Source of the DNA: Psammoneis japonica
Lineage: Eukaryota
Reading direction: 5' to 3'
DNA: 64,000 bases
NCBI GenBank assembly: GCA_008632985.1
Contig: QPGO01000105.1
Coordinates: 124,001 to 188,000, forward strand
Part shown: positions 1 through 64,000 of the stretch, piece after piece
How positions within the stretch are numbered: the first letter of the stretch is position 1
Layout: every line of letters starts with the position of its first letter
Position numbers and translations under genes: made by a program
Notes under the pieces: generated by a model
What the model was told of the DNA's origin: nothing
What the model saw: only the letters and a program-made list of their open reading frames with translations
Databases searched by the model: none

Positions 1-2535
1 CATCTCAATGACTTTGACACACTGCTGGACCCTCGGTGGTGGATGGCAGATGCTGGATGACAGCAGATGGCAGATGGGTGGCAAATCATGGCAGATGGCA
101 GGTGCATGGTGTGAGCTGAATTGCGGGGGTGCAGCTTTGCCATCAGAGGAGGGCCAAATCTGCATCAAAAGGCAGGAGGGGCAAAATCTCAATGCTTTCT
201 CAAAGTCATTTTGAATCCCATGACTTCTTCCTCCAGACCACACCAGAAGCTGTTGAAACAAAGAGCAGTGCGTGGTTGCTTTTTCTTGACAATTTGTTCT
301 GCCACACTCTGTGCCAGCCATGTGCCAGCAACAGGAGCTCACACCCATCTTTCACACAAATGGCATGACCATGCTTCATCCTCAAAAAGGGGGGTGATGC
401 TGTGCTCTGTTTCTTCAACCCCACATTGTTTGATGTCACAACTTTGAGAGCCAAGGTGAGACATCTTTCATGCAGCTTGGCCACTTGACTCTTTTCTTGT
501 TGTCGTCAGCGGGACAACTCACCTCCAACCATGAAATGGGCTGAGTTGGCAATTGTGTCCATCAGAGATCCAATGTTGACATCTGCAGACAATTTGGCTG
601 ATTTTGCACACATTGGACTCAACTTCATGGGGCTGGCAGGGGTGAAAGCAGGGTCATGTTTTTGATGAACAAGGGGTTTGAGATGGAGGGCAAAGTGCGA
701 AGCTGGGGTTTGCAAGCCAGCATTGGAAAGCAATGCACCCAAAAGCACTGAGAGCATGCTCCAGGATTTTTTGCATCTCAGCCCATCTCTGTGACTGCAA
801 AGCATGCTTGCTTGTTGGCTGTTGCCCCAAGCAAAACCAAATTGTTGACATTTCACATTTTGGCTCAACTGCAGCAACCAGAGTCGCGCGACTCTCTGGC
901 ATCAATTTGTTCAAATCCAAGCATCTGCACTTGATTGTTGCAACCTGAGTTCACACTCAGGTGCATTTCAAAGAATTCTTTGAAGCATTTGCATTTGAGG
1001 CTTTCATGCAGTGTGTTGCACACATCTGGTTGCCAGGGCAATTCAAAGAGTGAGAAGTTCACAAATCCACTTGGTCTGCTGTGTAAAGTGACTTGTGTGT
1101 TGCACTGTTCTTTTGACGCGTTCCAGGTCCAGGTGGGACCTCGCACTGCTGAACTGTGACATTGACAGTTTTTTGAATCACGTCGCATGTCATGCATGTA
1201 GATTTCTACGTGATTTTTTTGACATTTTGTGTCATTTTGCAGTGCACTTGTTGAGCGATCCATCCAACAACTTTTGACATTTTTTGTTGCAGCGCGATTC
1301 TACAGTGTCTTGAGAATTGTGCAGGGCAGGCGCATTTGCAAAAACGTTGAGCAGCAAGAGGCTCAATTGCACCACAAACTTGGCTGTTTGTTTGATGTTG
1401 AAGACAAACACATCCATCAATGAAGCTCTCGTGCTGCGGAGCTCGCACGTAGAATTCCATGGGCCCAATGTCACACGGAGTCCCACCCAGGACTGGAGCC
1501 CACCTTTTCATGCTGCGGTGCTCCTGATCAAATTTCTCAGGAACTTTTGTGAGCAGTCTTTCTTTTTGGGGCTGCAACAACGCCGTTGCCAGCTGCTTTG
1601 GGCAAGCCTCAAAACCAACCCTTGTTACTGCCGATCAAACACGTCGCCATGGAAGTTTCTGTTTGTGTTCCTTGGCAATTGCCCCTTCAACAAATGTGTT
1701 GTCTCACCTGTCAACCTCACAGCATGTTGGCAAAGACAAAGAAATGGCTGCAGGATGGTGTGCCAAAGCCAAACACCAGCCCATCACCAAGCTCTGCATT
1801 GTCTTTGCTTGGCTTGTCCTTTTGCCACCCTCCTTGCTGGCACATCATCTGCATGAAACTCCTGGTTGCTGCTGCATTCCATGACAACCCAAACTGCAAT
1901 CTGCATGAACAGCTTGTGAGCAATGGGCACACTCTGCCAAGCTGCTCTTCTGACACGCCGCTGAGGCACAAGCAGCTCACAACACTCAAAGAGCCAAAGA
2001 GTGTGGCCTCAAACAGCAAAACACCCTTGAACAAAAAGGGTCTGTGCCCCATCAAGTCTTGTGAGCATCAACGACAGTGTCATGTGGACACAGGCTCGCA
2101 ATGGTCTGAAAGAACAAGCTTCAGGAAGGACTTTCCCACCCAGCTCTGCTGCAATCATGAGGCTGCCCAAAAGCTGCACAACTTTCTTGTGACGTGCCTG
2201 TGTTGTTTGCAGTGGTGCCCAAGCACTTCAGTCTTGAGAGCCAAACAAATGATGATGCAGCAATGCTCCCACAACCACCAAAACTTGTTTTGCTCCAACT
2301 GAGTGTCATTCCAACAGCATCGACAAAAGCGGACCGCTGGCCATGCTCCTCAGACGCGCAATGACTGCGCAACTTTGTCTCGTGTCTCGTGTTCGCCAGT
2401 TGCAAGACGTTGAATTTTGGCGAAGCGGCGTTGCTGACGAAGCATCGAGCATCGCCATTGCAACGCCCCCTGTGGTGCATGCAACCCTCCGGACTGTTGA
2501 AAGTTGAACGAGTCCAAAAGATCAACAACATTGTG
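1..2535. mobile_element. Decayed repeat/transposon-like block, family not assignable
   Basis: Near-absence of TpA, excess TG/CA, only fragmentary Tyr-poor Cys/His-rich ORFs, and short TGGCAGA-like tandem units at about 40-110. Same composition as the identifiable LINE downstream. Confidence 0.55.
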
Positions 2536-2557
2536 ATAGCAAGAACTTGCGAGAACG

Positions 2558-5327
2558 ATGTTTTCGTTACCGCCCGATTACTTTGAGGAACTCCGACGAA
2601 ACGCCTTGAACATCACGCGTGTAAACAATGTGGATGTAGTAACAACTACACAGAGCGACACTTACGCATACTGTCACGTGCCGTATGTCTATGCATTCTC
2701 TTTCTTCAACAGCCCGGGTGAACCGCGGAAGCCGTATGCAGTTCAGGGCCCTTTGAGGGGGCAGCAGCGATTCATCTGGCCATGATGAATTTGAACAATG
2801 GTGATGGAAGTATCGTGCCTGAAGTGGAGGGACTGAACGAAACTTGTAACCTTCGCTTCACTTTTGAAATAGCGGATACGGAGAACTACGAAACCACCGC
2901 TGTTCACAAAGCGATTGGAATTTTAGACCGTGAACCGGGCCAGCCATTGCCACTTCCTTGTGCCTTTTTAGGAGCGACTAGTTCGGGGGTGACTATGCCA
3001 ATGGCAATTTTCACCGGTGTGAAGGATTATCCACAGATGTCTGGGATATCCACGTCAAGCCGATTGGACGATCGTAGCCAGTACAGACTCTTCAGCCGTC
3101 TCGTGCCCTCTGATGACGGTACCGCCATCGCGGTCATCCTGTACCTGAGAGGCGTCATCAAGACTGATTATCTGGCTGTTGTACATACAAACGAGGCTTA
3201 TTCGAACACATTTCTGGCTTCTCTCCAGAAAGCTGCCACACAGTATGCTCCCATGATGAAGATCCAATCGATTGACCTTCCTGTCAACATCATCACTGAT
3301 CAGGATGTTCAAACTGCTATCACTTTCCTTAAAAGCACACAGTTTCGTTATATATTTGCAATTATTGATGGACCGAAAGCATACGAAAGGTTGCTGACCG
3401 AAGCCTACCACCAAGGAATAGCTGGAGAGGATTATGTTTGGATCTTTTCCGATAGTCTATATGCCAAAACCATCACCGACCGAGAGTACGATAATCCTGA
3501 TTCTCCATTGGCCGTTGCAGCTAGAGGAAGTTCCATGCTCTTTGTGCAACCGGGTCTGTTAGGGACCCCATCGTACGACACGTTTGTTTCGAATCTCAAG
3601 GAGTTGGAGAATCACCCTGACCACATTGAGTTTCTGCAGTCCAAACACCCAGTATACGAGGGAGAGCGTGATTATGAACCACTTCAAGTGGGGCAAATTT
3701 TGCAATCGCTGGAAAGCCCTGGAATGAATGCCGTGTTTCTTTATGATTCCACAATTGCCATGGGATTGGCTGCTTGTGCGGCGGCAGACCCCATCAAGTA
3801 CTTTGACGGCGTGACTCACTACGAACAGATTATCAATACAAGCTTTTTTGGCGTGTCGGGCCCAACGGTTATTGATCCGAGTACTGGTTCACGTGATCCT
3901 TCTTCCGCATATTTCCAGCTTCTCAACTTTGTCGAACGAAGAGACCCATCTACGGGAAAAGTCACTTTTGAGACGGTGCAGACAGACCTCTTCCGCGACG
4001 GTGCATGGGAGAGTTTAGTACCGTACACTTATGGGGATGGGACATCCAACATACCTCCACCTCTACCAGTGACTCATGTGGACTTCAACTACATTAACGG
4101 AGTACTCCGTGGCATTGGATTTGCCATGTCAGCCTTAACGATATTCCTTTCGATTGGGTTTGGGGTTTGGACAATCCGCAACAAAAAGTGCAAGATTGTC
4201 GCAGCATCTCAACCCATCTTTCTGCTCTTTATATGTGGTGGCGTTTTGCTGATGGGGTAAGTTTTCATTTTATTCCGTTCCGTTTGTGTCTTCATTGTTT
4301 TATTGGACATACACTGAACACTATTATTTGTGTTTACCGGGCTAGGTCCTCCATTATTCCGTTGAGCATTGACGATAAGATTACGAATATAAGAGGATGT
4401 GACATTGCCTGTCAAAGTACACCATGGTTGGCCGTTCTTGGCTTCGCTCTCACATTTGCAGCGCTGTTTAGCAAAACATGGAGGATCAATAGAATATTTC
4501 ACAACCCTTCCTTGAAACGCATCAAAGTAACAGCTGTTGATGTTATGGCCCCGTTGGTTTGCCTGTTGGTGGTGAATGTGTTGATTCTCTCTCTTTGGAC
4601 TGGTTTGGACCCGTTGTTGTGGGAGCGCCGAATCTCTCGCGTAGATGTGTTTGGGCAAACTTTGGAAACAGAAGGACGATGCGAGTCTGGCTCCTTTGCA
4701 GCTTTTGTGTCTGCGCTTGCGGCCGTCAATATGGGAGCTTTGGTCGTAGCTACATTCCAAGCATACCAAGCACGTAACATTGCTGTTGAATTTTCTGAGA
4801 GTACGTATGTAGGACGAGCCATTGGATTGTTTTTGCTGGCTTGTCTCTATGGGATTCCCGTTCTGGCCATCACATGGGATGATTCTAGTGCGCGGTACTT
4901 TGTGCTGATGATTCTCGCCTTTGTGTGCAGCAACTCGGTGCTTTTGCTCGTCTTCATTCCGAAGGTGATCTTTCATCGCCAAGGTGGTTTCAAGAAGGCG
5001 AGTCGCATTGTCAACCGCCACGTACGTTCTTCTGAAGAGAGGAACACAACATCAAGCACTGATGGGTCTGGGCCGGTCATCAGCGGGCTGTCTCAACATA
5101 ATACAGCATCCGCCGTCGTTTCTGAAGACTTTGGAATTAAAGTAATAGATCATATCGGCGCCCACAATCTACTGAAAAATAAAAACCAAGAGCTACGCAG
5201 GGAACAGAAGATGCTGAAGGAACGTCTGAAACTGGCGGAAGAGCTTGAGACACTGCATGCACAAGATCCGGACGCCGACTGTGAAGACGAGATTGAGGCA
5301 GAGCACACGCCAGAGTCCACTCCATAG
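2558..5327 (+). CDS. Class C (GABA-B-like) G protein-coupled receptor, copy 1: Venus-flytrap domain, 7TM and C-terminal coiled coil; one 1-nt frameshift
   Basis: ATG 2558; intron 4257-4345 (GTAAG...CTAG); stop 5325-5327. Motifs ASQPIFL, LFSKTWRINRIF and EFSES. Colinear with the copy at 19115-21888 but has CCC at 2749-2751 where copy 2 has CCCC, which splits ORFs 2558..2785 and 2782..4260. Confidence 0.85.
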
Positions 5328-5519
5328 CAAATTCCCAATAGAGTTTTCATACCCTCTGGGCTGGGGGCTAAAATCTTTTCTCTTCAAAACAGCTGTGTCG
5401 GTCTCTCTAGGCGACAGGGCATTGCCGACATCGTTCAGTGTTGGATTGTTGTCAGAGGGCACACACAACTGACTTTTATGGGAATTTTGATGCTTTGTAA
5501 GTCATTGCTCATTACCACA

Positions 5520-8500
5520 TAAGGGCAAGAGTCACCTTTTGCAAGGAGCAGCACCAGAGAGCAATTGTTCTACGGGCAAAATTGGAATCCTCCTTCTTTT
5601 TGTCACTGCAAGGAAACCACAATTCTGCGTGCATTCGCATTGACACCACCTGCATGTTTTCAATGCCAGGTTCCCCGCAGAACAGCCAACCACCATGGCG
5701 TCCCCTTCTGTCACTGACGGCAGCCATGCCCCGCCTCGTGACACCGACTCCACTGTGGCTGACGATGTCACTGTTGATCAATCATCCATCAAGCTTTCTT
5801 CCAAGCCAAAGAGCATCAGCTTGAAGAGATTGCCATCCGCTTTGACATCCGTGGCCAACAGTCATCGTGCAAGCCCATGACCCCAGTCACAGCCCATCCA
5901 CAAGTCCTGCAACAGATTCCATTCACGCACTGCAAGGACAAAAAAATCCTTGACAACCACAACAACCAGATTGCAAATGTCAATGTGGCTGCTGACTGGA
6001 TCTCTTCCTCCAACATGAACGGCACTTTGTTGTTTCGACGAATCGAAATGGAGAAAACCACCAGGTGGCTCACAGTCTGTGTTGCTGCATCCTTGCAAAC
6101 ATCCCACTTTGTGAAATTTGGTCTCACCCTCACATCCAGAGCATTTTGGATAACACGGGTGTGAAACGCCACTTCTGGAATGAATCAGATGTTGAAACGG
6201 TGACTCCGGCATGTCACATTGCCGCTGCTGCAAAGCGCACTCCGGTCGATGAAGCAGCAAAATTGTTTGTCAGCAATCTTGGGAATTTCAGGTCTAAAAT
6301 GCCACAGTTCTGATTGGTGCCCACTTCTGTTTGAGCCAACAAAATGACGGTCTTGCCACCCCTCTCAGCACAGTGACACTCATCATTGAAGTGTTGCGTG
6401 CTGAACATCGCGCTGCTGGCAAGGCCTTGCTGCATGCATTGAACAAGCTGCCAACACATGCTGTGATGGCACAAACCCATTGCATGTCTCCTCTTGCCTT
6501 TTGCAATGTGGTTAAAACCCAAGCCCAATGCAACGACCATGCCTTTGTTGTTCCTCTGCTCAACACCACCCCTGATGTGATGTTTTGCTTCAAGAATCAG
6601 CTTGAAGCTCTGAAAAGAGCAAAGGAAATTTTCCAATCCAAGATTGTTGATGGATGGAACAACATCCTTGTTGATCGTTGGGATTTCAAGAATGTTTGAG
6701 CTGCAATGTCCACTTGCGTCATGAACTTGGTTCCATCCATTTCAAAAGAGTCTTGCCCTTCTCCCCTTTTTCAGGGCCTCCTCAGGTTTCTGGAGTGCTT
6801 GAAGAAATGCAAGATGCAAGCAAATCAATTGTGTCAGCCAGCATCCAAAGCCTTGAATCTCTCACCTTCTTGGGTGTTTCTCCCCTGACTGACAATCAAG
6901 CCTCTGGTGCTCAGGCAGAGGTCACCCTGGACGTGGCACCACCCAAGGATCCGCTGTTCCACCCCATGATGTTTTCACTCACTTGTCCCAGCATTCACCG
7001 CCTGCATTCAGACTGCCAGGATGCCATGTTGTGTCACCTTCTTTGCATTCTCTAGCACAAGCTGCTCAGTCAACCTCCAGCTTGTTCATCACTTCCACGC
7101 AACAGGTCGAAAAGTGCAACAGTCTGTGGCCCAGATGCAAGAGAAAAACGAAAAGGCTGTGGCATGGCCACACACCCAACATTTGTGTGACATGGAGCAT
7201 TGAACTCCACCTTCACTGAACAGCACACACAAGACATGGAAGCTTTGCAGTCGCAGTGCTCTCAACAACTGTTGGGTGTGCAAGAACAGATGAACCAGAT
7301 TGTTCAGTTGCTTCAAGCCAGTCAACCGTCACAGAGCTCAGCTTGTAAATGTCCCAACAACATGGAAACTCCGGATCGGTCTGGGGACCACAGAGACAAG
7401 GAAAAGGATTTTCAGTGCGGGGTTGGACTTCACTGCCTCCAACCCCTCAGACAATTGGGCATCCTCCTGACATTTCAAGACTCGATGAATTTCTCACCCT
7501 TGCACACCAGTTTTGCTGCACTTCTTGGCACAAGAAATTCTCTTTTCATGCTGCATCAGGTCCATTGAATTGTCACAAGCCCCAGTCTGCTCTTTGGAGG
7601 AGCGTGGCTCAAACATGAGCAGTGAGTGTTCATCTACGTCCATCTCCTGGCAACACATCTTAGATGGCAGACGGTGCACTCCTCTGGCAGAACATTGAAT
7701 TGATTTTTCCTGTCTCAAGACAAATGAACTGATTGGTCATGAAGCACAACCAAAGCTCTCACATCATGTGTGACTTTGTGCCTCAATGCAAGTGGGTGCA
7801 AATTTGACAAGCGCTGCAGAGATGTTGACGTCTGTTGTCAGATTGCCAATGAAATTCAGGTGGATGTCATCGGCAACTCGAAAGTTTGTTTGGACACAAC
7901 CCAGTTTGAGATGCTGTCAGTGTGCAGGTCAACCGTGGCAAAGTCTCTTCTCCACGGTTGAGGGATGTTCTCCAGCAGCTCTGCCCCCTTTTCAATGCAG
8001 TGCAAACCAGGTGGTGCCGCAATTGTGTCGTGCAACTCCGTCTCGGCTCGACACCGATCCCAGGATTTTGATCCTCTGGGCTGCTGGTCCATTCAAGTTT
8101 TTGATGGTTGCAACGGATGTCAAGTCATGTTTGTCTCCTGTTGCAGAGTCTGTGTGAAGAATCAAAGACAACCGGGCAAAACCACAGCATGTGCACAGCA
8201 ATTGCATCTGTTGCAACAACAAGGCCATGACTCCATTGACCCATGCGGGCGAACCTTCAGTGCCGCATCTGCACATTCTCCTGGATTCTCTCAATGATGC
8301 AAAACCGTCTTGACCACGTTGCCCAAATGCAACAGACACACTCGAAGCTCGCCGGATCATTTTCCATTCTGTCAACCTTTGAAGAATGCCAAGCAGAGTC
8401 ACAAAAGGCACAAGCTGAGTGCAAGGCAGTGGCAAAGGAGAGCATTGTACAACGTGAACACAAATTGGCAGAGAAGATTGCCAAACTTGACCTCGAAGGA

Positions 8501-11500
8501 ACAGCAGCCACCCACAAATCAGCTTCCATGGTCAGGAACATTTGCAAGTCAGAAGAGACAGCTGAGCTTTTTCGGAAGACAAGTGCATGCAAAGCAAAGC
8601 AGGACACAGGTGTCAACAGTGTCCAGGTGCCTTGCAACCCAGCAACACATCCAAAAGAGTGCGAGGATTGGATTGCCATTGATGCACCAGCAGATGTTTC
8701 CGCTGCTCTCTGCTCTTGAAATCAGAAACATTTTGGACAAGCTCATGGCACTCCACCGACCCCCCCCTTTCCACGGACTTGGGATGCAAAGGTGACACGG
8801 TGATGGCTGACCTCATCCCAGATGGAGAATGCAACACTTCTTCTCTCAATCGGGCAACCGCTCCATTTGTTCAACACCTGCAACAATGGTCCCCTGCATC
8901 TGTGGCTGAGTTCCTGACTGAATTGGATCTTCAAGGCAAACTCAAGTCATGGAAAGAAACGACAACTGCATCTGCATGCTCGAGTCTGTGCTTGGGTCAT
9001 TGGAAGGCAATGCATGCATCCCATTCCCAATCTGAGTCCAAAACGGTGGAAGGGGATCCAACACCCGAGTGCCCATGCATGAATGACGTGCAATGCAAGC
9101 TGATCTGCATCCGTCTGAACCTCCTTAGCTGTGCCCTGCGGTGGGGGTGCTCTTGCGATTGGTGGAAAGACATTGTCAATGTTGTGACTTTCAAAGAGCC
9201 TGGCAATGACAAGATGCATCAACTCCGAGTGACACACATCTGTGAGGCAGACTTCCAACTGATTTTGAGCATGAAATGGAGAGCTCCAGCGCAGAACGTG
9301 GAACACTGCCGCTTGTGCAATCCTGGGATCTGTGGCACACACCCCTTCCTGAATGCACATGCACCAGTGCACCTCAAATGGCTGATGTTGGAGATCAGTT
9401 GAGTGTGCAGGAAGACTGCCATTCACAGCGATGGCAACTGCACCTCATGATGTGACAGAAACATCCCGGCTCTCATGGCATTAGAAAGCCGCAGCACCGG
9501 AATGCCCAAGGCGGCAACAAAAATGGCAAACGCCACTCTACATGGTGCTTGACATTGGTTGAAGACAGCGCTTGGCCTTTCCTCATTGTCGCACTCACAT
9601 TCGGATGAGTTCTCCATTTGCGGCACCGGACAAGGTGGTGGGAATTCTACATTTTACTGGAATCAGATTTGCAACAGTTTGTTTTGGCTGTTCGACAGCC
9701 AAGCTCATGGGGCTCATTTCGAAACTCCTGATCATTTGGTTTCTCTGTGGATGTTCGCTGGAGGGTGTGTTGATGACACATCCAATCAAGTCAACGATTT
9801 CTGTGCTGATCCTCAACCAGAAGCAATGGAGCCAGTCCTTTGAATGCAAGAGGACAACCAGTTGTGGTGCGATTTACTTGACGCAGCTGGACATGAGCTC
9901 AAGCTCCCCAAATGCTCCTTTCATGTGATTGAATGGCTTTTCACAGCCAACGGTGAGCCTCACCTGCGTGCCTGCAATGAAGAGATTGATCTCAAAATGC
10001 ACTCAGCCAACAGATCCACCAAACAATCCAGCACCCAACTGTCTGTGTGCTCCTCTCACAAGACTTTGGGCCATTGCAAATCACCAGCAGGCACTCAGCA
10101 GACTCTGCACAAAGCAATGAAAATGAAGAGCAATGACATTTCTTTGTTTCTTTGGTCTTGCCCTTTGGACTGACATGAGGCATGGACCCACTGCTTTGCT
10201 TGCTGTCTGTCCTCCATGATGCATGTTCTTCCAAACACCCACTTCCTGCCTAAAGAGTTGCTTGAGATTCAATGCAAAGCTGTGGCTGCAATCAAAATGC
10301 CAAATGAGATGCACTTTACGGGCCATGCACCTTGAGCGGAGGAGGGTTTTGGTTGCTCGATGTCAAGCAGGGTGCAGCACAATGCTTGCAGTTCCTCTGA
10401 CATTGGCAAGGCACAGGTCAACCTCACACATTGTCCCGGATCACGGCGGCATGGATGCAATTTCAGATTGGCATGGGTGATGGCTTTCTGTTGGATGTCC
10501 ATGCCACACTCCCTCATCATGAGTCTAAATGGTTTGTGTCAATGCAATCCTTCCTTGCCAGAGTGGACTCGCACTTTGAGCTGGATTTCACTGGAGTCCT
10601 CCAACACAACGTGACAATGACCAGTGCATCATGGACGTGGTCTTGGAATCAAACATTTTCTTGGCTGAAGAAATCCGGTGGGTCAATTGTTGCCAGTTGC
10701 ATCTTTGTGTGCTCGCTGTTTCAGATGTCACCCTTCCCAATGGCAGACACTCAGATGCATTTGTGTTGCAAGGACAAACCTCCCTGTTGAGCTGCTCCTC
10801 ATCATTGAATCCCATGAAACAAGCATGTCCGTCTGCACGGGCCTGGAAACAGTGGTGCCAAGCAGTGGCTCTTTTGTGCATTGAAAGTGCTGCAACCTCA
10901 AGACATCCTTTGGGCCAGTGGACAGCTCCCACTTCTGAGATGCAAATGCTTTGCCCCGCCTGCTGTGAGCCTGAGGAAGAGTTTCTCTGCATCTGATCTG
11001 GAGCCGGATTTCAAGTTTTTCCTGTCCAGGATGATTGCGCCACATCTCTGCAGCACCTCAAAAATTGTCCCCAACATTTCCCCATTGGCATCTCCCACAC
11101 TGGTGAACATGTCTCTGGATGGGAGATGGATGCTTCGGCTGTCGTTTTCCATGGTGGCGGTCCCACCAACCATTCCCGTCTGCAGCGATTTTTCCGAATG
11201 GCTGAAATCCTTGCCAAAATGGGAGTCTACCTTGTTCTGCGAGCTCACTTTGCACGTTTCAACATTTGAAATTGCTGCATCCTTTGAGAATTTTTGTGCT
11301 GCTGTGGGTGGCGATGGGTCTGTCTTGCACTTTCACGGCACCTTTGGGTGGACACTGACAGTCAATGGAGCGTGGATTTTTGTCAGTTCTTCAGTTCCTC
11401 ATTCGAGTGTTGGAATTCTGCAATGGCACTCTGTCACAAACAGCAGATGTCTTCTGTGACAACTCCTCCCTGTCATTGCAAATTTCAAGTCTCTCCCGCC

Positions 11501-12400
11501 TCATCCAGTGGATGTGGAGGAAGTCAACAAACAGCATGACTGTCATTGCCAACATCACATTGCTGACACACTGGCTCTTGACTGGGATGCAGTGCAAGAG
11601 ATTTTTGTTTCTTTGCAGAGGTTGGAGACTCAATCCCAAGTGAATCCTCCTGACACCATGGTTGACATGCAGTGGGTCAAAGGCCATGAAACGACAACAG
11701 CCCACATGAGCCCCTGTCCCTTCCAGCAAAACTGAGTGTCTGTGCTGACAAGTTGGCAAGTTCTTTCCAAGGCAGGCACACTGGCACAACACTTTGCTCA
11801 CTCCCCGCATGCCCCGCTGTTCTGCAATGTTGACAGTTCAACAGTCATTGGTGACTTCCAAGTTCAAATCGGTTCTCTGACACAAAGCCTCCAGTCCAGC
11901 CCTCATGACATGCATGAAGGAGAAGTGCGGGTGGTCTGATGAGGTGCACACTCAATTGACTGGTGGGTTCCTTCCAAGCTGATGTCTCCCAACATCCGAC
12001 GTAAGGTGAGCACTGTGAAACTTGTCCAAGATTTGCTGCCAACAAACAAAATTGTCCACCGGTGCAATCCTGCACACCCTGACTGCTGCGTGCATTGTCA
12101 ACATCCCCTTGAAGACAGGGACCACATTTTGCATTGCAACCACAATGAATCATGGCAGCGCACATTCCACCAAGGCTTGCAGAAGAAATGTGACGACATC
12201 AACACCTCTCCTTTGACATGGGATCTGTTGTCACATGCCTTGGAGGGTTGGCTTCATGAAGACATGCACAGCTCACGAGACCACCAGGAATGCAACAAGT
12301 TTGCTGGCACAAAAAATCTGCAGCGCCATTTCTGGTCACCGTTGACATGTCCGAGAGTGCACGCGCACTCCCGATGTCTCCTGTAATCATTGCTGGTGGC
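5520..12400 (+). mobile_element. Decayed non-LTR retrotransposon (LINE): ORF1 and ORF2 with AP endonuclease, reverse transcriptase, RNase H and C-terminal zinc knuckle
   Basis: Ordered motifs across broken frames: APE-like CKPGG, DPLGCWS, SCCRVC, TACAQQ (7990-8220); RT LGHWKA, KEPGNDKMHQLRVTHICEADFQL, GTGQGGGNS, GCVDDT, LKLPKC, HKTLGHCK (8990-10090); RNase H GGDGSV..GTFGW, FCDNSS, QWVKGH (11300-11690); CCVHCQHPLEDRDHILHC (about 12085-12140). Ends are approximate. Confidence 0.9.
5695..7420 (+). pseudogene. LINE ORF1 remnant
   Basis: Chain of same-strand ORF fragments (5695, 5877, 6065, 6331, 7200) upstream of the endonuclease motifs, ending in a coiled-coil-like stretch (QDMEALQSQCSQQLLGVQEQMNQIVQLLQ). 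Confidence 0.6.
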
Positions 12401-22594: not shown

Positions 22595-22631
<37 letters not shown>

Positions 22632-50782: not shown

Positions 50783-51169
50783 GATCACCTGCAGAGTAAG
50801 AACCTTATCACAGGATACAAACAACAACAACAACTACTACAGCAAGTTTTAATAGACTGTAGATCGTATCTTTAAAGGATTGGTGGTTGTCTGAAGCAAT
50901 GCAAAAATGACACATGACGAAACGAGAAAGAACGCGTTCCTGCTTCGGCCAAAAAGTGCGCTTGCTGGACAAAACTTCAAGAAGAACCTGGATTTTGTTT
51001 GATATGTTTTTCAACAGTCATTGATGATTTTGATTAGAAAATATAAAATATTCAACTATGGTCGTTGTTCAATTATCAAAAGCAAGACGACTCATGCCGT
51101 TCGGCATCAACGCGCATCGCCAAAAAACAAAAGGGCCAGAACGACGGACGTGCCGGAACCGGGAATAAA

Positions 51170-54100
51170 CGTTGCTGGCATGACAATTGCTCACAATTTT
51201 TGCAGTGCAGGACCTGCTGCACACTTGTCTGTGGGCTTTGTTGTCACATTGCACCCTCAAATCTGAGTGACATCATTCTTTCGTCATTCACAAAAATGTG
51301 ACCCAAAGTGCAAATGGCACATCAGCACAAAAAACAAACCACCACTGGCACGCCACAATGACACACACACTCTGCTCTTCTTTTTTGTGTCTGGTGCCTG
51401 TCAGAGTGCACCACCTGGTGTGTGCTTTGCAGCCAGATTGCACTTGGATGGCAGCTCAGCCCTCTGCCTCTTCTTGCTCTTTCTTGCTGGTGCATGTGTT
51501 GCGACCATTGTTTGGGTGTGTGGAAAGGAGGTTTCTTGTGGCATTCTTTGTTCACTTGGCTGTTGTCACCACCAACAAATTGTGGCCTTGCACTGTGCCC
51601 CACATTCTTCTGCACTGCAAGTGATCCCATGATTTCAGTTGTTTGGTTTGTGATCTGATCAAGCCTGCCACCTCAAGTTTCTGCTCTCCTGCAAGTGTTT
51701 TTTCTTGCTTCAAACCATGACATGCTTTGGGGCTGAAGGACGGTGTTGGGGAACAACTTTTTGTGCACCTCTGCCACAGCCACTCCATCAGAAAGGAAAA
51801 TGGCATCAACTGCTGATGGCCTTGTTGAGATCAAAGCTTCTTTCCAGATGTGTGCTCCCATCAACCAGAAGCCATGAAGCACCTGGCCAACCTTTGTAGC
51901 ACCTCAATTCTCACACTGAGTCAGTTCTTTGTCACAAAAAAAACACTCAAGCAAGGGATGGTGTTCAAAAGCTGTTGCACAGAACTTGCATCCTTCAAAA
52001 GCACATCCTGTCCAACACAATGGACCCCTCTGATGTCTCCTCCATTGCACTGCTTTTTAAAAAAGCCCCCCTCAATGGGGGGATCCAATGAGTGATGACA
52101 AGATGCCTTGCTTTTGTTTTGACAGACGTTGGGCCTCACAAGGAATGCCCAACTTGCTCTCAAGGCTTGCCAAATGAAAGCAACCATTGAGACACTGGTG
52201 GACTGCACTTCACAGCACTTTTTGACCCCCCTGACATGCACACTGCAGCCATCGCCCCCTGACATGCAATGCAGCCATCAAGGCTGGAATGAGTTCTCTG
52301 GGTCACAAAGCTTTGTTTCACAAGCTGAGAGTGTGTGCCATGATGATTTGCCACATGGCATTTGCCAGTGGTGTTTCTCAACAACTTCCAACAGCATGCA
52401 CAATGCACAGCCAACTGGGCAGCTCTTTGTGCTGTGCGCCCCCCACTGCGGCACTTCCTTTGCAACCACGGTGGTGACTGGGGGGTTTGCCATCAGATGT
52501 GACCCACCAGATGACCTGCTGCAATGAACACACCACTTCCATTGCCTTGAGTTGCCATGTGCAATTCACAAGCTCCTGTCATGCTCCAACATGTTCCCCC
52601 AAAACAGTGCCAAGTTGACAGAGATGAGCATTGTGAAGGGTCCTGCTGTGCAATCTGGGGAAGAGAAAAAGAGGCACAAAAAAATGCTGTGTGTGGAAAA
52701 GCTGGACAAAAGGCCCTGCAAGCAGAAAAAGTGAACACTCCAAAACCCCCCACTGTGTCAATTGAGGTCTTGTTTGCCTGTCTCACTGTGCTCTTGTCTT
52801 CTGACAATCCAAGCGGTGTCACTGGTTTGTGGGCATGTTTTGAGGAGTGCCTCACATGCACATTCCAAGAAGAAGCAATGAGAGAGTCATTTTCTTAAAA
52901 CAAAAAACAAACACTCATCACAACAATGAAAACAACTGCTGCACATGGCAAGAGCACATCTGCTTTTTCTGCCTCTCATGACAACAAATGACAACGCCCC
53001 TGGAGCTGGCACACTTTGCTCACTTTGCATGTGTTGTTTCTCTTTTTCATGGCACAGTGGCTGCAGCAGACTTTCAAGTGAGAAGTTTCTGCATCCTCTT
53101 CTCATTGCAGGCTGTTTTGCTTCCCCTGCTCTGAAAGTGCTCAGTGTGCAAACAACATCTTTCAATCTGCCACATCTGAGCCAGCCCACCACGGTTCACC
53201 ATGCATCACACAGACCTGTTTTTGGCATTTTTGTGCATCAAGTTTCTGTCATGCACCAAAGACATGCAAACTCTTTTGAATGCTGCAGGTCTGATTTGGT
53301 GAGAAATGCACTGCAATTCTCACCTTCCGTCCATGTGTCCACTTTGCATTTTGTCAATTGTTGCCACTTCCACACTTGCAGAAAATTGAGGAAGTTGTCA
53401 AAAGCAACCACACACCACACAATGGAAACTTGCTCAAAAAACATGTGTCATCCAATGCATTTTGCACTTGCAGCAGCATGTAAAATTCCTTTCACATGTG
53501 TCTTCCAGGGTGAGCATTTTCATTGCTGGTTCTTGGAAAGCACTCTCTTTCTTGTGTGAGGCAAAAACATGCCACCATCATCAGATTTGTCACGCTGCAC
53601 ATTCCTGACGGAAAATGTTTTCACAGCTGGAAGTTTTTGTGAATTTGTTTGCTCTTAAGAACAGACAAAGCTTTGCTCTCAAGATCAATGACCACTCGTG
53701 TTGCAACACAACTCAAGCAGTGAAAATGGGAAACAAAGAGCAGCAGCTTGTTTGGGTGCACTGTGCAACAGGTCTTGTCAGTGTTCCAAAACATGCACGC
53801 GCAAACAAAAAAGACATTGTTTTGGTTTTACAGGTTGACTGCAAAATTGGTTGTTGCACACAATCTGTTGCTGTGGGGAATGGTGAAACATCTGTTGTTT
53901 TTTGCTGGTGAACAAGTGCCTGCAAATGGGTGAGTTTTGATGTGAGACACACCAATTTTTTCATTTTGGAGCCTGATCACCTTGCACTGACAATGTGGAA
54001 AACCCCATTGCTTGTTTGTCCAAAAAGGTTTCTCACATTGGACAAAAACATGCCAGGCCCAGGTTCTCTCAGAAGACTCAGTCAAAATGCACATGAGACA

Positions 54101-54960
54101 TGCCCACCACTCCATTGGCTGAACTTGATTGAACCTCAGTGCAGCTTGTTTTTCTTTGGAGGTTTCTTCTCTCTCCCTCTGCCATGGTGCAAACATCATG
54201 ATGGTTTGAAGCAGGGCCAATGATGACAACTGATGGGAGCTGCCAACACAAGAGCCACACAAAAAGAAAACACCTCTTTTTGCCTTGTTGATGCCTTCTG
54301 CACTGACCATGCATTGACAGCAACAACAGCTTCAATGATTTGTTGTGGCAGAAGGTGCACACACCTTGTGAAACTTCATGGCATGGGCCCAGCCTCAAAA
54401 CCAACCTTCCTTATTGCACACTGTGCTGACAAGCAGATCTCATGACAACAAGTCATTTTGCTCAGTGACATCAAACACAAGAAATGCAAGCTGTGCCTTG
54501 ACCCTTTTGCAAGCAAGCCTCAGAGTTGTTCTGCTAAACAACCATGTTGTGATTGTTGAAAGGCGATTGCCACTCTTTCTTCTAAAAACTGGCGGTGCAA
54601 GCTGGGCTTCAACAACAGCTGTGTGTTGCACTTTGCTGCTGTGGCAACTCACAAGAACAGCCAATGCAGTCACATGGTGAGAGCTGTGGCCCAAAACAAA
54701 AAACAACTGAGCTCACCATTGTTCCCTGAGCCAGCAGGCCACAGTGCTGGCAACACCAGCAGCCAAGTTTGTTGTTTGGAGCTGTCATTGCTGTCATGTT
54801 CCATGCTTTGTCATGTGTGTTGATTGCCATCCAACAATGATGAAGTCACCACCGCATCTGACAATCACTGACAACAACATCTCTTGTTGGGCTGGAAGCC
54901 AAGGATTGGTTCCACCACCTCATGGGAAAGGTTTTCAAGGGTCTCAGTCCCAAGGATTGC
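51170..54960. mobile_element. Decayed repeat block, unclassified
   Basis: Very strong loss of TpA and CpG; Tyr-free ORF fragments. Confidence 0.5.
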
Positions 54961-55140
54961 AAGGCAAGATGGATTGACCTGGATGATGAATCTTGTCTGT
55001 ACGATGGCCAGCCTTTTCCTAAACTTGCAGATCAAGATCCCATTTCCAACACTGCAGGTACAGCAGCACCATCCGGCAACCCCTGCTAGACGGCGGTGCA
55101 CAGTTTCAGGTGTGTAGGTCGGTAACAAATCTTCATACTG

Positions 55141-55375: not shown

Positions 55376-57531
55376 TCACCACGCGAAGGACTCCACGTTC
55401 AGGTTAACATTGTACTCCATCGAGATGCTCTTCAGCTCTCGCTTGACCGGTTTGCTCCCACCACAGTATAAGATACCCCATGTCGACAAGACAACGTCCC
55501 GGTCCAGAGCCCGTACATATGGATGAGCCGCTTCATGCTCTTGACAGGGATCAAACGAGCATGTCAAAACGGCGTTGGACGCATCCGGTATGTCGTCTGA
55601 GAGATGTTTTTTCAGTCGACGGACTCGTCTCTTTGCGTGTTTGGATGCCGATCGGCTCAAGAGATCCGAACGATTAGGCTTGCCGTGCATCTCTTCCATT
55701 TTGCGTTGACTTGTCATTTGGCCAAAGTCACGGATTCCTTGCAGCATGGCGCTTTCCCGTCGTGTTGATAGTGGGCTCTCCTGTTTGCCCCCGTTTGATG
55801 CTTTAGACCGAGTTGTCTCATTGGATCCGTGGTCATCACCAAGCTCACAGTCTTGAAGAAAACGGACGCTCTTCGATCTGTGTGTTTCTTGTTCCATATC
55901 GTCAACGAGCTCGGTAAAGAGGAATCCTTGGTTTTGAGCAAAGGTTTTGAGTTCCAGCAACTTTTCTCTGTTTGTCATATCCAATTCATCAAGCTCTTCC
56001 ATTTTTTGAATGAGCAGTCTCTTGACGTTTGCAATTTCACAAGAAGTGTAAATCTCGGGTCTACCAACTCCGCTCTCAATGCCATAGATAATGTTTGGTA
56101 GCACCCGTTGGAAATCCGGTCGACCCTTAACAACACGAACGTTTGTGTTTAAATCTTGTAGCGCCGGCGGCAGAGGCTTCTTCCCTGTATAAAAAATTAA
56201 GTTCCATCCATCATGGTCAAGATAGAGGTGTTCAAGAAAGAACTCAAGCATGGCGGAATCACGGACAACCCATACAAGGTTGATGCGCCTCGAGTCTTTC
56301 TGAGAGCGAATTACTGACAGCGCGGGTGTAATGCCAATGCCCGAGGCGACAAGAATTTGGTTATCGTAGGCTTCGGCGTTGCTATACGGACTTTCAAACG
56401 GCCCTTGAATCCAGACTGGACGGTGAGTGTCTCTCTGCAGCGCGGCGTGAACAGATTGAGTCCAGTCGCCTACATTAAGCATGAAGACCTGTCTCTGGGT
56501 CGGTGCTTGTGGGTTCTCAAAGAGTGAAAATGGATGCCACTGGTTTCGGTCTACCCATGGCAAGCAAACATAAGCGAAACCTCCTGATTCACCTTGCTTC
56601 TGGAACCTTTCGGAGACCTTCAGAGTCATTTGAACTCCAGTTGGTAGCACATGGAAGGTGGTCGTCTCAATCTTTTCACTCATGAAAAGGCAAACGTACG
56701 CTGCGTCCAACGCATAAAGGCCAATGGAGAAGCCCATTGCAATTGAAATTAAGCCTCCATGCGGGAGCGCTGACGTGGGAACATAAAGCAAAGAATGATT
56801 GCAAACACGTAGAATAGATAGTGGAGGCACTTTCGAATCTCGTAGGATATCGATGTCTTGGCGTACATCATGGGAAAGCAAATCAAAGGAGTGGCAACCA
56901 CCACAATGAGGCCAGTCAGTCCCGCTCGACTTGTCCATAGGAGGGAGATATTTTCTTGATCGATCCAACGTAGTAGATGGAAGATCGTATGTATCCATAC
57001 GACAAAAGCAATGTACTTTCCGGCGTAGCGATGTAGATCGTGGCTGTCGTGGATTGTATACATGGACAGGGGAGTCTTGTTGAAAAAGCTCATGGTCGCC
57101 TTACATTTTGTCAAAAATACAAGAATCATGACTGGGTACAGAGAAAAGGCCGATGCACGGGAAATGGCTAGCGATACTAATTGGAATGTACCTTCTGCCA
57201 CGATCGGGCGCTCGTCTCCGTTGATCATGACAATGCCATTCTCGGTGTTTTCGTGGCTATTGACGTCAATGATATTTCCCGTGGATGAGTCCACGACACC
57301 AATCTTTGGATGAAATGCCATAATCATGCTATAAATAACGCAGATGAGCTGGGTCAGTTTGACTGGCCAGAAAATGGCAAGCTTCTTGAGTCGAATACGG
57401 GCCTTGACGCTGAGGGTTTCTCGCTTTCGATTGACGACCCGTTCTCTCGGAATGCCATCCAAAATGGCAGTTCCAGTCTCCGGATCGATATTGACTTTCA
57501 TGTTACTTCGTATACCAGGAAGTAGCGACAT
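55376..57531 (-). CDS. Ferric reductase / NADPH oxidase family flavocytochrome, copy A; 1-nt frameshift near 56785
   Basis: Heme-His helices HDLHRYAG..HTIFH and HYLFYVF..CF(H); QWHPFS (FAD); LVASGIGITP (NADPH); LYCGG; ESFAW. Restoring one C gives CFHVP as in copy B. The start is uncertain. Confidence 0.85.
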
Positions 57532-58008
57532 GGTATCCCACAGACCCTTACGCTTGAAGGTTTAAATGCTTTTATGAGGGCCAAATGAAAGGAAGGCAAA
57601 GCAATACTGTAGTCTGCCATCAGTAAGGAGAATTGAGAAGCGAATCACGATTCAGTGAGTCGCGGCAAGACAAGGTCGCGGATCAACGGAAGGTAATGTT
57701 ACATAGATATTTAAAAAAAGGATGACCGTGATGACATTTTTATTTAAGAGGGGCTGATGTTCCCATTGATTTTACAGTTTATACTGTACCCGTCTTCGAC
57801 AAAAAAGCGCGGCATGAAACGCAATGCCTCACATTTTTGCTCTGACTTGACCCAAGATCGCGGCTACGAGTAGCAGCACTGTTCGCGTCCCTTACGAGCC
57901 CCCCTTCTACAATACAGGAGTGATGGACGACCATCGACCATCGTCTCCTTCTTTGGTCCCGAGATCGCGGATGGTATAGCTGTTGAACTACTTTTACGAC
58001 ACTACCTT

Positions 58009-60344
58009 TTACCATGCAAACGACTCCACATTCAGCGTGATCTTGTAGTCCACCGAAATGCTCTTCAAATCTTTCTCAACCGGCTTTGATCCACCACAGT
58101 AAAGGATACCCCAAGTCGAAAGTACGGAGTCCTTATCCAAAGCCTTGACGTAAGCTTTCTCGCGTTCACCAATGTCATTCAGATCGAAGTCGGTTTGAGG
58201 AACCCGGACACGGGGCTGTGTCAAGAGTTCGTGCTTTCCTTTACGAGCCACTCCATGAAGACTGTTTCCACTGCCCCGACAATGGCTTTGTAAATCGGGG
58301 ATGGTGGCACCGAAATCCCGAATCCGTTGAAGAATGGAATGGGAGTTTTGGCTCAGTTGACCGGAAATGTCCGTGTTGTCGTCATCGGCCATAGCTCCAA
58401 GGTCATAGTCCGAAGAACCGTCTTGACACAATATTTCATTTCCGAGCGATGGAAATAACTCTTGCTCCATTTCGTTGACGAGCTCACTGAAAAGATAGCC
58501 ATGCTGACAAGCAAAAGCGGTGAGCTCGAGGATCTTCTCACGACTCGTCAGATCCATTTCATCTAGCTCCCTCATTCTCTTGATCACAAGCTCTTTGATG
58601 CCTGCCATTTCATTTGGTGTAAACGTCTCGGGCTTTCCCACACCACTCTCAATGCCGTATATGATGTTTGGTACGACAGTTTTTAAGTCTGGACGACCAT
58701 TGTAGACGCGAACGTTGGTGTTCAATTCTTCGAGAGCAGGGTTGAGCGCCTTCTTTCCAGTGTAGTAAATTAAGTTCCACCCATCATGCTCCAGGTACAT
58801 GTGTTCGAGAAAGAATTCAAGCATTGCCGGATCACGAACCGCCCAAATCAAATTGACTCGCTCGAATCCTTGTGAGAATGAATAACAGATAATGCCGGAG
58901 TGATTCCAATGCCCGAGGCGACAAGAATCTCATTGTCGTATGCCTCTGCATTGCTGTATGGACTTGCAAAAGGTCCCTGCACCCAGACGGGACGGCAAGA
59001 ATCTCGTTGAAGAGCCGAGTGTACCGCCTTTGTCCAATCTCCTGCATTCAGCATAAAAACTTGTCGCTGGCTTGGATCGATTGGACTCTCAAACAGCGAG
59101 AAGGCGTGCCACTGGTTCCTATCTACCCAAGGGAGACATACGTAGGCAAATCCACCCTTTTCACCTCTGTCTTGGAAACGCTGAGAAACATTCATTGTCA
59201 TCTGAACTCCCGTTGGAAGGACATGGAAGGTGGTCGTATCAATCTTCTCGCTCATAAATAGGAAAACGTAGAGGGTATCCAAGGTGTATAGACAAATGCA
59301 GAAACCCATGACATACGCAATGAAACCTCCATTGGGGATAGCAGAAGGGGGTACGTGGAAGCAGAGGACAACCGCAAAAACGTAGAAGAGGTAGTGCAAA
59401 CCCTTTCGTATCTCATAGCTGATGACTTGTTTCCAATACATCATGGAAAAGCAGATTAAGGGGATTACAGCAACCACAATCAAACCTGAAAGTCCGGCTC
59501 TACTCTCCCACAGCAATGAAATATTCTTTTGATTAACCCAGCGTAGAATGTGAAAGACTGTATGGATCAAAACATCATACGCGATGTACTTTCCTGCATA
59601 TCGATGTAGTTCGTGACTATCTTGAATCGTGTACATGCTGATGGGCGTCCTATTGAAAAAGCTCATGGTCGCCTTACACTTTGTCAAGAAGACAAGAATC
59701 ATGACGGGATAGAGCGAGAAGGCCGAAGCACGTGATATCATCAAACAAACCAACTGGTACGTGCTTCGAGCAACAATAGGACGATAATCCCCATTGATGT
59801 ATACGACACCATTTTCCGTGTTTTGCCAATGATGGATGTCAATGATTCCCTCTCTGGAGAGCAGAGTGGACGACATAATGAAGACATAGATAACACATAA
59901 AAGCTGAGCAACCTTGACGGGCCAGAAAATAAGCCACTTCTTGAGACGGATGCGAATCTTAGTGCCCAACGTTGTCTCTCCTCTGCTGGGTAGTTTTGGC
60001 GGAACCACTCTCCTAGCTTTCATTGCAGAGATGATCGCAGACGGTCTTTTTAAACCCGTCTTCTTTTCTGGCGTAGCTTGGGGTGTCTTTATCGGCAACA
60101 TGCTTTCGTTTTCGTCGTCTTGGCCAGAAGGAGTTTGCAGCTGCTTGTACAGACCCATTTTCTCCTTTTCGTTGGCATCTTCAATCAAAATATCGTGCAT
60201 GATCTCATGATATAGATCGTTTGAAGATAAAGCCGACTGTTGAGGCAGTGCAGGAAAGAAAAATCGTTAAGTGCGAGAAGGATTCTAGGCAGATGCACGT
60301 GTGGGTTGGGTTCAATGTCTTGCTACCGTGCTTCTTCTCACCAT
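58009..60344 (-). CDS. Ferric reductase / NADPH oxidase family flavocytochrome, copy B; 1-nt frameshift near 58861
   Basis: Same motifs as copy A. Restoring one G gives KDSRRVNLIW (copy A: KDSRRINLVW). The tentative start is ATG 60344-60342 followed by intron 60341-60237; the alternative start is 60200. Confidence 0.85.
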
Positions 60345-62132: not shown

Positions 62133-62574
62133 GTTCGTCGAGCTGTCGAGCTGCAGTCAGCCACTTACAATACACGCTATGACGTTCGATGATATTTAGC
62201 GAATGCGACTCCCTTCGACGTTCGAATAGTCGGGAAAGGTGTGAATATATACGGTCGGATGAGAACACTCAGAGAATAGAAGGCAGGTGCGGTGCGTGCG
62301 TGTCAGCTGCATGTCGATAAAGAATGAAGACGACTGCGCGATTGACGGAGAGATGATGCCCATCACTCACTCATTCGGCAAAGGCAGTGAGTCGTGCGAT
62401 TCGTTCTGTCGAATCCTACGCAACGGAGATGTGTTGTCGTACACTTTCACGCCTGCATCGCCTCCAAATTTTCAATTCGAAAATTTGGAACGGGCCAACG
62501 CTCTCACGAGGAGGTTCAGGATCCTTTGGATCATGCTGTTGTATTCACGTTGTTTGCCTGCCACTTTTTACACG

Positions 62575-64000
62575 TGTCATTCTGAAGGACTTCATCCATG
62601 CCGCAGTTGCAACAACAACGAAATGACATGTTGCAAACAAGCAGCGCAACTGTGCGGTCACAGTTGAGTCGTCGCAGTGCCGTCCACACGTCGCACGGCA
62701 CACAGGCTCAGAGCAAACCGGAGCAAGCGTGGTGGGACACTCAATGTGGCACACAAAATGGGAGACATTTCATGTTTCACGGATGCAGCTTCCGGGTCTC
62801 AACATTCCCCTTTCGATTTTCTGTGCCGTTTTTGTGTTGTCACGGTGGAAGTGCAATGACCATGATGGTCGATTTTCACATCAATGTGAGTGGGGCCCAA
62901 ATGCACTGACCATTGGAACCTCATCAAATCGATGGTGCAGAACACTGTCATGTCACCAGCGCATCTGGGCCCCACTTGCATTGCCATGAAAATCGCGACG
63001 GCATTCTCTCACTCTCATGGCTGATTTCTTTCTGCAGGCGCACCCAGAAAAGTGCTGCGCACCGATGCTGTGCAAGCGCCTGTGCTGATGAGGGGTCACG
63101 GGCTTGATTTCTAGTTTCCTTGGTGCAAAAGAGCACAGCCCTTGGCCTTGAACACCTCGTGCTCCAAAGGATGACGGCCAGCTCGGAGCTCACATGCAAA
63201 GCACACTGCCGTTGTTGGTTTCACAGTGCCGCACAGTTTTTCAGCTTGATCAGTGCAGGCTTGGTGCATTTCCATGTGAAGGAAACAATCCACCTGGCAC
63301 GCAAGCAGTGCAGCAATCGCCCAGCTCACAGACTTCCATTTGTCTGCACCGGTGCTGTTCTTGATTTCGTCTGCGCACCCGCTTGGCGGATTAAATCACT
63401 TTCTCAATGGGAAGCGAGTTGCTTTTGTCTCAGATTTTTTGAATTTTTGATTTCAAAACTTTGCACATGTGCTTCCATTGGTTCTGTTCTGTGTCCCCGC
63501 ATGTCTTGTGTCCTTGTCAGCACTGGGCTGAATCGCGCGCTTCTGCTGAATGAAATGTTGCACCAAGATCCACACAATGCCGACCGACCAACCAACCGAC
63601 GCACCACACGGCATGTGACTGACTCAAGGTGGTCATTGCGCTGTTCACATGTTCATGTCCTTTGAACAATTCAAGTGCAATGTTGTTCAATGCACAAAAG
63701 AATTTTTGCAATCAAGCATGCTGGATCAATGAAAGTTCTAATTTTTGAGTTTCGGCATCGGAGCCACCACACACAAACAAATCACACAAACAACAAAGAC
63801 CAGACTCACACTCAACACTCACAACAGCAAGCTCTCTCTCTCTCTCTCTCTCTTGTTGTGGCTTTCATGTTGCAAGAGTTCTCTTTGTGTGCAATGTTGT
63901 TTCACCCACCATGAAGCGACTCACTGAAATCAACACACAAGCCATTCTCTCCTTTGTGGAGGAGCGCATTCACAATGGAAAATTCCCAAACATTGTGACA
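62575..64000. mobile_element. Decayed repeat block running off the window end, unclassified
   Basis: TpA nearly absent from about 62575 onward; Tyr-free ORF fragments. Confidence 0.45.

Follow-up and report, generated by a model that had tools for sequence, protein, structure and literature searches.

What could remove nearly every TpA dinucleotide from long blocks of a genome while the genes lying between these blocks keep theirs? The question is raised by a window of 64 kb (positions 124,001 to 188,000 of contig QPGO01000105.1) from the diatom Psammoneis japonica, for which a sequence-only reading had described seven blocks almost devoid of TpA and rich in TpG and CpA, and had proposed a repeat-directed hypermutation that erases TpA as well as CpG. 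We delimited the blocks in this window using a 500-bp sliding profile, a list of TpA-free gaps, and pooled dinucleotide counts, and recovered all seven with coordinates agreeing within tens of bases (Table 1). Together they cover 30,237 nt, against 33,197 nt of DNA between them, and contain only 92 TpA (observed/expected ratio, o/e, 0.05), whereas the DNA between blocks, where the genes had been described as normal in this respect, has 1324 (o/e 0.58). At the inter-block rate the blocks would be expected to contain 1206 TpA (Fisher p = 7e-261), and 200 mononucleotide shuffles of the blocks yielded 1991 +/- 36, with a minimum of 1893. The longest run without TpA measures 1536 bp inside the blocks versus 204 bp outside, and at most borders the density of TpA flips over one or two bins of 20 bp, such that the abrupt switch previously noted is sharp to ~20–40 bp.

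CpG is also scarce in the blocks (o/e 0.32 versus 0.99 between them), whereas TpG (o/e 1.83) and CpA (o/e 1.73) are in marked excess compared with the inter-block value for TpG/CpA (1.18); G+C content is ~0.48 in blocks and between alike. Relative to the inter-block o/e values, the blocks lack 1061 TA and 1192 CG (2253 in sum) and have a surplus of 1165 TG and 1094 CA (2259 in sum). The deficit of TA and CG therefore balances the surplus of TG and CA, and these two steps alone close the balance. No depletion comparable to that of TpA is seen for ApA, ApG, or any other step containing A or T (for ApA, o/e is 1.27 in the blocks versus 1.14 outside). The most enriched trinucleotides in the blocks are GCA, TGC, and CTG, and the blocks also have a surplus of GpC and a deficit of ApT because GTA becomes GCA, TAC becomes TGC, and ATA becomes ACA or ATG. 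Every block is saturated for TpA loss (TA o/e 0.02–0.06) although CpG o/e spans 0.11–0.65 among them, and across 57 within-block windows the correlation between TA and CG depletion is not significant (rho 0.23, p 0.09).

Direction and sequence context of the TpA loss

Two comparisons allowed us to polarise the changes. The first involves a fragment of an ABC-transporter gene located at the edge of a block, a 340-bp copy sharing 82% identity with an unmutated paralogue 3.5 kb apart and whose homology stops at the block border. Fourteen of the 15 aligned TpA of the normal paralogue are converted in the block copy (10 to TG and 4 to CA, one remaining TA), and its 18 CpG are distributed among 7 kept, 5 changed to TG, 4 to CA, and 2 to CT. 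By comparison, 13/14 TG and 28/32 CA of the paralogue are kept. Expressed in natural-log units, the loss amounts to ~2.7 per TpA and ~0.94 per CpG, other sites differing by ~8%; judging from this pair, TpA loss appears to be faster and more complete than CpG loss.

The second comparison concerns an open reading frame (ORF) in the largest block. We translated the region 8683–11001 (plus strand) through its TGA codons and searched it against 1.84 billion representative proteins, which retrieved 1928 relatives at E<=0.001. The best of them (P0121, 1934 aa; E 1e-110, 42% identity) matches the whole element colinearly along its residues 38–1759, and long relatives contain an apurinic/apyrimidinic (AP) endonuclease domain and a reverse transcriptase (RT). 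The element at 7779–12254 is a nearly full-length non-LTR (long terminal repeat) retrotransposon of the LINE (long interspersed nuclear element) type, with few frameshifts and massive point mutation. Its amino acid composition is highly unusual, with residue fractions of 0.001 for Tyr, 0.065 for Cys, and 0.057 for His; the corresponding medians among 150 relatives are 0.036, 0.019, and 0.041. The sequence-only reading had attributed such a lack of Tyr and load of Cys and His to the ORF fragments of the blocks in general; this can be sustained for the LINE ORF, the only one identifiable. Overlapping ORFs occur in all frames of the blocks and are long by chance because TAA and TAG are gone and TGA is the sole remaining stop.

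Using 11–105 relatives per aligned segment, we defined 366 columns conserved at >=60% and examined the residues found in the window copy. None of the 16 conserved Tyr is kept (9 Cys, 5 His, 1 Trp, and 1 Asn), and none has changed to Phe, Ser, or Asp. Conserved Arg residues are also largely lost, with 9/26 kept (8 Gln, 2 stop, 2 His, 1 Cys, 1 Trp, and others), and retention is higher for Trp (16/18), His (10/12), Cys (7/8), and Lys (11/14). In a first alignment of 79 sequences, the window copy alone had none of 9 conserved Tyr, the others having 2–9. The 132 changed conserved columns comprise 46 single TA>TG/CA or CG>TG/CA steps, 19 other transitions, 27 transversions, and 40 requiring more than one step; this LINE copy is also old, or far from its relatives. 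As both comparisons agree, the TpA-free, Cys/His-rich state is derived and not a trait of the LINE family, whose members have Tyr at the positions occupied by Cys or His in the window. Both also reveal an excess of A>G/T>C specific to TpA, where the changes are almost purely such transitions (14/15 in the ABC pair, 14/16 for the LINE Tyr). On this evidence, the earlier idea of a targeted A:T>G:C change at TpA in degraded selfish DNA, the opposite of fungal repeat-induced point mutation (RIP), with CpG loss to TpG/CpA alongside, holds well, and all three checks that the sequence-only reading had named as able to overturn it turned out in its favour.

The loss of TpA strongly depends on its flanking bases. 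Strand-symmetrised counts in blocks and control DNA (block/control) were 0/93 for ATAT, 0/215 for ATAC, 1/136 for GTAC, 3/128 for ATAG, 5/187 for ATAA, 14/216 for CTAC, 3/46 for CTAG, 18/151 for GTAA, 20/69 for TTAA, and 28/83 for CTAA. Per-strand survival increases from 0.012 for TAT and 0.044 for TAC to 0.108 for TAG and 0.179 for TAA, and the enrichment of the product trinucleotides follows the same rule (TGC x2.0, TGT x1.5, TGG and TGA x1.3). The loss depends on the base 3' of TpA and is near-total before T or C, weaker in TAG, and weakest in TAA. CpG survival is context-dependent as well (in the same type of counts, GCGC 58/70, or 0.83, versus ACGA 58/358, or 0.16), an effect that could stem from methyltransferase or repair preferences. 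With regard to the strands, runs tests of TG versus CA gave z values near 0 in six of the seven blocks (a weak z of -2.45 in the other), overdispersion is lower in blocks than in genes, and the sense strand of the LINE contains 486 TG and 487 CA. Either strand is therefore hit equally, without clustering.

Individual sites could also be compared with related contigs. At position 35640 the window keeps a TA (in TTAC) where all 11 related contigs have C, and at position 35650 it has CA where 12 contigs have CG. Some surviving TpA may accordingly be new C>T mutations and not escapees.

Weighing the explanations

We consider it probable that the blocks record an in-place, enzyme-like mutagenesis of TpA (A:T>G:C) acting on silenced transposon DNA, of the kind recently reported in the chlorarachniophyte Bigelowiella natans (bioRxiv 10.64898/2026.01.13.699255), accompanied by decay of methylated CpG. 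The blocks would be old transposon-derived DNA in the diatom nuclear genome, and the conversions would have been made on the DNA in place, within a marked chromatin domain, silenced and probably CpG-methylated. An enzyme-like activity would attack TpA, in the simplest case by deaminating its adenine to hypoxanthine, to be read as G; alternatively, thymine might be modified so as to mispair with G. Since TpA is palindromic, adenine deamination and thymine modification give the same outcome and sequence alone cannot separate them; whichever strand is hit first, the TpA site would be destroyed. CpG loss would simply reflect methylated cytosines decaying in the usual way within these domains, and the end state would be a permanent inactivation, with all Tyr codons gone and Arg codons replaced by stops or by codons for Gln, His, Cys, or Trp. 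A gene fragment not belonging to a transposon is also affected inside a block, and about two thirds of the CpG are converted to TpG/CpA. This mutated gene fragment, together with the strand symmetry, provides indirect support for an in-place origin.

The sharpness of the borders, to ~20 bp, invites a different reading, which we find unlikely, in which RNA or first-strand cDNA was hypermutated before integration by ADAR-, APOBEC-, or ADAT-like single-strand deaminases. The borders would then be insertion boundaries and the ABC fragment would have been transduced, in keeping with its position exactly at a block edge where homology ends, with the LINE nature of the identified element, and with the mostly single-copy depth of the block sequence. 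However, RNA editing alone would produce A>G on the sense strand only, and such a sense-strand-only, clustered pattern is not found here, the outcomes on the LINE sense strand being balanced and unclustered. In addition, the 11.8-kb composite block is evenly depleted far beyond the 4.5-kb LINE, no target-site duplications were found at the borders of five blocks, CpG loss differs among blocks as in-place decay would have it, and the B. natans signature arises in place on integrated DNA (bioRxiv 10.64898/2026.01.13.699255).

The common borders of TpA and CpG losses could also be accommodated by a passive regional bias operating without a dedicated enzyme, through heterochromatic repair deficiency or a polymerase-eta-like patch repair after deamination of methylated cytosine, with slow erosion of TpA wherever CpG is methylated. 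We regard this as quite unlikely. Polymerase eta has an A>G preference at TA and AA (WA) motifs and its errors include many transversions, whereas ApA is not depleted in the blocks and the changes at TpA are almost purely transitions. A passive bias also fits poorly with the strong 3'-base rule, with the contrast in the ABC pair between the losses at TpA and CpG and the 8% at other sites, and with a TpA loss that exceeds that of CpG and is saturated even in the block where CpG o/e is 0.65.

If heterochromatic bases carrying modifications such as N6-methyladenine, 5-hydroxymethyluracil, or 5-methylcytosine (6mA, 5hmU, 5mC) were misread, TA and CG would really be there and the blocks would be a sequencing or assembly artefact. 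This is very improbable in light of a public read set (X1), which contains 91% of the sampled words from a gene-block-gene stretch and whose contigs we compared with the window from 18001 to 38000. Contigs of 1.0–5.4 kb run across the borders at 22508, 25526, and 33923, with a word depth (56–65) matching that of the flanking genes. Inside the blocks they have 0–2 differing letters, and all 8 differences of one of them (record 2) lie at 25983–26015, outside the block. At 35343–36676 the depth rises to 252–666, versus ~60 elsewhere, and two records (6 and 7) match with 0–2 other letters. The contigs thus have the letters of the window, not the TA that the sequence-only reading had named as the sign of a base-calling error, and since they reproduce the blocks, an artefact of consensus, polishing, or scaffolding is excluded. 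Moreover, misreading a palindromic, symmetric step would generate strand-discordant TG/CA words and fragmented contigs of half depth, which were not seen, the scaffold gap of 566 N is typical of short-read scaffolding, and a misread modification would presumably not be inherited through replication unless turned into a real mutation. What speaks for an artefact is that the platform of X1 is not on record and that X1 is possibly the assembly's own source, so that its agreement with the window is not an independent confirmation.

Over the same 18001–38000 stretch, a second read set from the same sample (X2, labelled ‘DNA?’) has a very uneven gene depth (15–408) and leaves most block bins without cover, a transcriptome-like profile, and a third (X3) gave no contigs there. 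If X2 derives from RNA, no transcription of the blocks is detectable; absent contig cover proves nothing, and we have not used it as proof of silence.

We give practically no credit to the idea that the blocks are foreign, for example viral, DNA that always avoided TA and CG and was never mutated here: their mutual dissimilarity and the lack of identifiable genes in most of them would suit it, but 78 aligned LINE relatives keep Tyr where the window copy has Cys or His, the normal ABC paralogue retains TA, and the deficit of TA and CG equals the surplus of TG and CA.

Several observations do weigh against in-place mutagenesis of silenced transposons. A transposon is identified in one block only, Pfam searches being unconvincing for the others. 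A high-copy repeat beside a block is untouched by the TpA process, so that not every repeat is affected, although this element may be young or exempt. With a sharpness of ~20 bp, the borders are explained by insertion boundaries no less well than by chromatin domains, and no intermediate states occur in the window, so a slow clock is indistinguishable from a burst. Finally, all read evidence comes from one sample.

Contents of the blocks and the genes between them

Pfam searches of the block sequences gave nothing convincing. Among 139 stop-to-stop ORFs of at least 95 aa from all blocks, Pfam returned one weak zf-RVT match (E 0.003) and two at chance level, and there was no match for the read-through translation of the LINE region or for those of the three plus-strand frames of the block at 22508–25526. 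We looked for sister copies of this LINE ORF with a word-based search, which gave 15 matches, the best with 37% identity and none close. The blocks show no similarity to one another and no LTR-like internal repeats, and a tandem-repeat search of them yielded nothing informative. At the five blocks inspected for target-site duplications or terminal inverted repeats, the sole candidates were one 7-mer and one 10-mer, no better than chance. We also considered whether the blocks could be hypermutated copies of the neighbouring genes, an idea that we rejected, as only the C-terminal 68 residues of the ABC transporter matched when 20 neighbouring gene products were compared with the blocks. What is seen of a possible confinement of the TpA loss to foreign or selfish DNA is a LINE in one block and normal genes between blocks; the other six blocks are presumed to derive from transposons.

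A public protein of 359 aa (P0221), a LINE RT fragment 31% identical to the window's LINE copy, likewise has almost no Tyr (0.006) but much Cys and His, and at hallmark RT positions it shows Cys in place of the Tyr of its relatives. This protein resembles the product of a second hypermutated element, whether of the same organism or of another.

Table 1. Blocks and other features of the 64-kb window (TA, CG, TG, and CA values are o/e ratios)
Feature	Position	Strand	Remarks
TpA-free block	1–2536		TA 0.04, CG 0.36, TG 1.77, CA 1.81; extends past the left end of the window
Family-C G-protein-coupled receptor (GPCR) gene segment (control)	2549–5412	+	Duplicate at 19106–21981, 92% identity over 2880 bp; TpA normal in both
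TpA-free block, largest, composite	5572–17399		TA 0.05, CG 0.32, TG 1.83, CA 1.70; stops at N gap
Hypermutated non-LTR (LINE-type) retrotransposon ORF, nearly full-length, colinear	7779–12254	+	Inside block 5572–17399
N gap	17400–17965		566 N
TpA-free block	22508–25526		TA 0.02, CG 0.14; both borders spanned by X1 contig records 1 and 2
TpA-free block	33923–38137		TA 0.06, CG 0.37; ~35.3–36.7 kb multi-copy by read depth
TpA-free block	42606–45980		TA 0.06, CG 0.45
ABC-transporter gene 3' end fragment, hypermutated	42606–42956	-	Last 68 codons and downstream sequence; left edge of block 42606–45980
Unmutated paralogue of the ABC fragment	46160–46511	-	3' end of intact ABCG gene; polarising reference
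TpA-free block, strongest CpG loss	51167–54999		TA 0.03, CG 0.11, TG 2.01, CA 1.82
TpA-free block, weakest CpG loss	62570–64000		TA 0.03, CG 0.65; extends past the right end of the window

The genes between the blocks are ordinary. They encode two family-C GPCR, three MORN-repeat proteins, ABCG transporters, ferric reductases, and a DUF389 protein whose best named relatives are from diatoms (46–52% identity). Every gene family of the window is locally duplicated (GPCR x2 with 92% DNA identity, MORN x3, ABCG ORFs x2 plus the fragment, and ferric reductase x2), with the duplicated families at 2549–5412/19106–21981, 26087–33588, 46314–50833, and 55376–60200, the genes forming islands between degraded blocks. 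Just 3' of the second GPCR gene, at 21822–22278, a 228-bp unit with normal TpA is tandemly duplicated (2.0 copies, 87% matches), and a related 150-bp piece is found at 5261–5407.

These duplications bear on the part of the sequence-only reading that was not supported, namely that the process is directed by repeats. The 2.88-kb GPCR duplicate has normal TpA in both of its copies despite their identity, only the block copy of the ABC pair is mutated and its paralogue is untouched, and the blocks are mutually dissimilar; duplication alone is therefore no trigger. Independence from copy number holds more generally, the blocks being unlike one another, intact duplicates being spared, and most block sequence being at single-copy depth. 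The untouched high-copy repeat lies beside the N gap at 18001–18667 (to ~19300), where the summed read-set depth is ~2290 versus ~60 for single-copy DNA and both TpA and CpG are normal; for a 173-aa ORF within it (18113–18634, minus strand), neither Pfam matches nor relatives were found.

Comparison with known systems

To our knowledge, cases in nature of targeted A:T>G:C mutagenesis acting on DNA are almost unknown. Fungal RIP changes C to T mostly at CpA, creates TpA, lowers G+C, and mutates all copies of a duplicate. The diatom blocks resemble its products in the permanent inactivation of selfish DNA, the dense transitions, the dinucleotide preference, and the fairly sharp limits. In contrast with RIP, they lose TpA, have CpA in excess, and show an unchanged G+C content, while a 92%-identical duplicate of 2.9 kb has been spared and, of the two copies of the ABC fragment, one alone is mutated. 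A second point of comparison is the decay of methylated CpG, diatom transposons being known to carry CpG methylation. The loss of CpG to TpG/CpA, which is restricted to the blocks (9/18 CpG in the ABC pair, and the Arg losses of the LINE), is of this type, but such decay covers only half of the TG and CA surplus and none of the TpA loss.

The pure deaminase-type transitions of the blocks also recall ADAR and APOBEC editing. These enzymes act on single strands or double-stranded RNA and leave strand-asymmetric, clustered tracts, whereas the diatom outcomes are strand-symmetric and unclustered. Both ADAR and tRNA adenosine deaminases prefer U or T 5' of the edited A, and ADARs prefer a 3' G, unlike the preference for a 3' T or C observed here. 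The target of tRNA adenosine deaminases is A34, which follows the invariant U33, and that of bacterial TadA lies within UACG, a context that would fit the T-A-pyrimidine preference; we take this analogy as only a lead.

The closest parallel is provided by B. natans, the sole match in our literature search, which found the TpA-erasing signature unreported in diatoms. The sequence-only reading knew of no named pathway with this signature, a statement superseded by this precedent (bioRxiv 10.64898/2026.01.13.699255). In the mutation-accumulation lines described there by Mettrop et al. (bioRxiv 10.64898/2026.01.13.699255), two integrated viral regions took 231 of the 302 point mutations of the nuclear genome, one of them a single-copy, transcriptionally silent 186-kb giant-virus insert; the mutations in these regions were almost all A>G/T>C, those all on TpA, at ~6e-7 per site per generation, and the authors proposed as agent an ADAT2-like adenosine deaminase. 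Both systems share almost exclusively A>G/T>C changes, only at TpA, yielding TpG or CpA depending on the strand, and an action on single-copy DNA, with no dependence on repeats. They differ in the organism and its targets, with giant-virus and virophage inserts in a chlorarachniophyte on one side and LINE or transposon-type DNA in a diatom on the other. They also differ in what is seen of the process, which in B. natans is caught live in mutation-accumulation lines with a mild depletion (TpA rho 0.45), whereas in the diatom only the saturated end state is visible (o/e 0.05). The main text of the preprint (bioRxiv 10.64898/2026.01.13.699255) contains no mention of diatoms, CpG, or flanking bases, so that the CpG decay alongside TpA loss and the 3'-base rule have been seen in the diatom only, as far as that main text goes.

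The saturated diatom footprint suggests a process that occurs widely across the major marine algae and whose age has allowed it to clear TpA from whole transposon graveyards. New here are the flanking-base rule (TAT and TAC far above TAG and TAA), which any candidate enzyme must reproduce, and the findings that the TpA process shares domains with CpG decay, being faster and more complete, and that duplication is not its trigger. TpA-erased DNA escapes homology-based transposon annotation and, therefore, the repeat content of such genomes is probably underestimated; the enzyme behind the process, if it acts on DNA, would be of interest for base editing. More speculatively, diatoms and chlorarachniophytes, and perhaps the SAR lineage (stramenopiles, alveolates, and Rhizaria) widely, might share an enzymatic DNA-editing defence directed at foreign or transposon chromatin that bears a mark. 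Its A:T>G:C conversions at TpA would favour T-A-pyrimidine, as tRNA adenosine deaminases do, and it would amount to a naturally occurring pathway of DNA adenine deamination beside CpG methylation and to a counterpart of RIP that mutates by transitions with no need for repeats, a generalisation that we hold as tentative. One precedent for the signature itself has recently come from another algal lineage; the diatom adds to it the specificity for sequence context, the saturation, and the joint occurrence with CpG decay.

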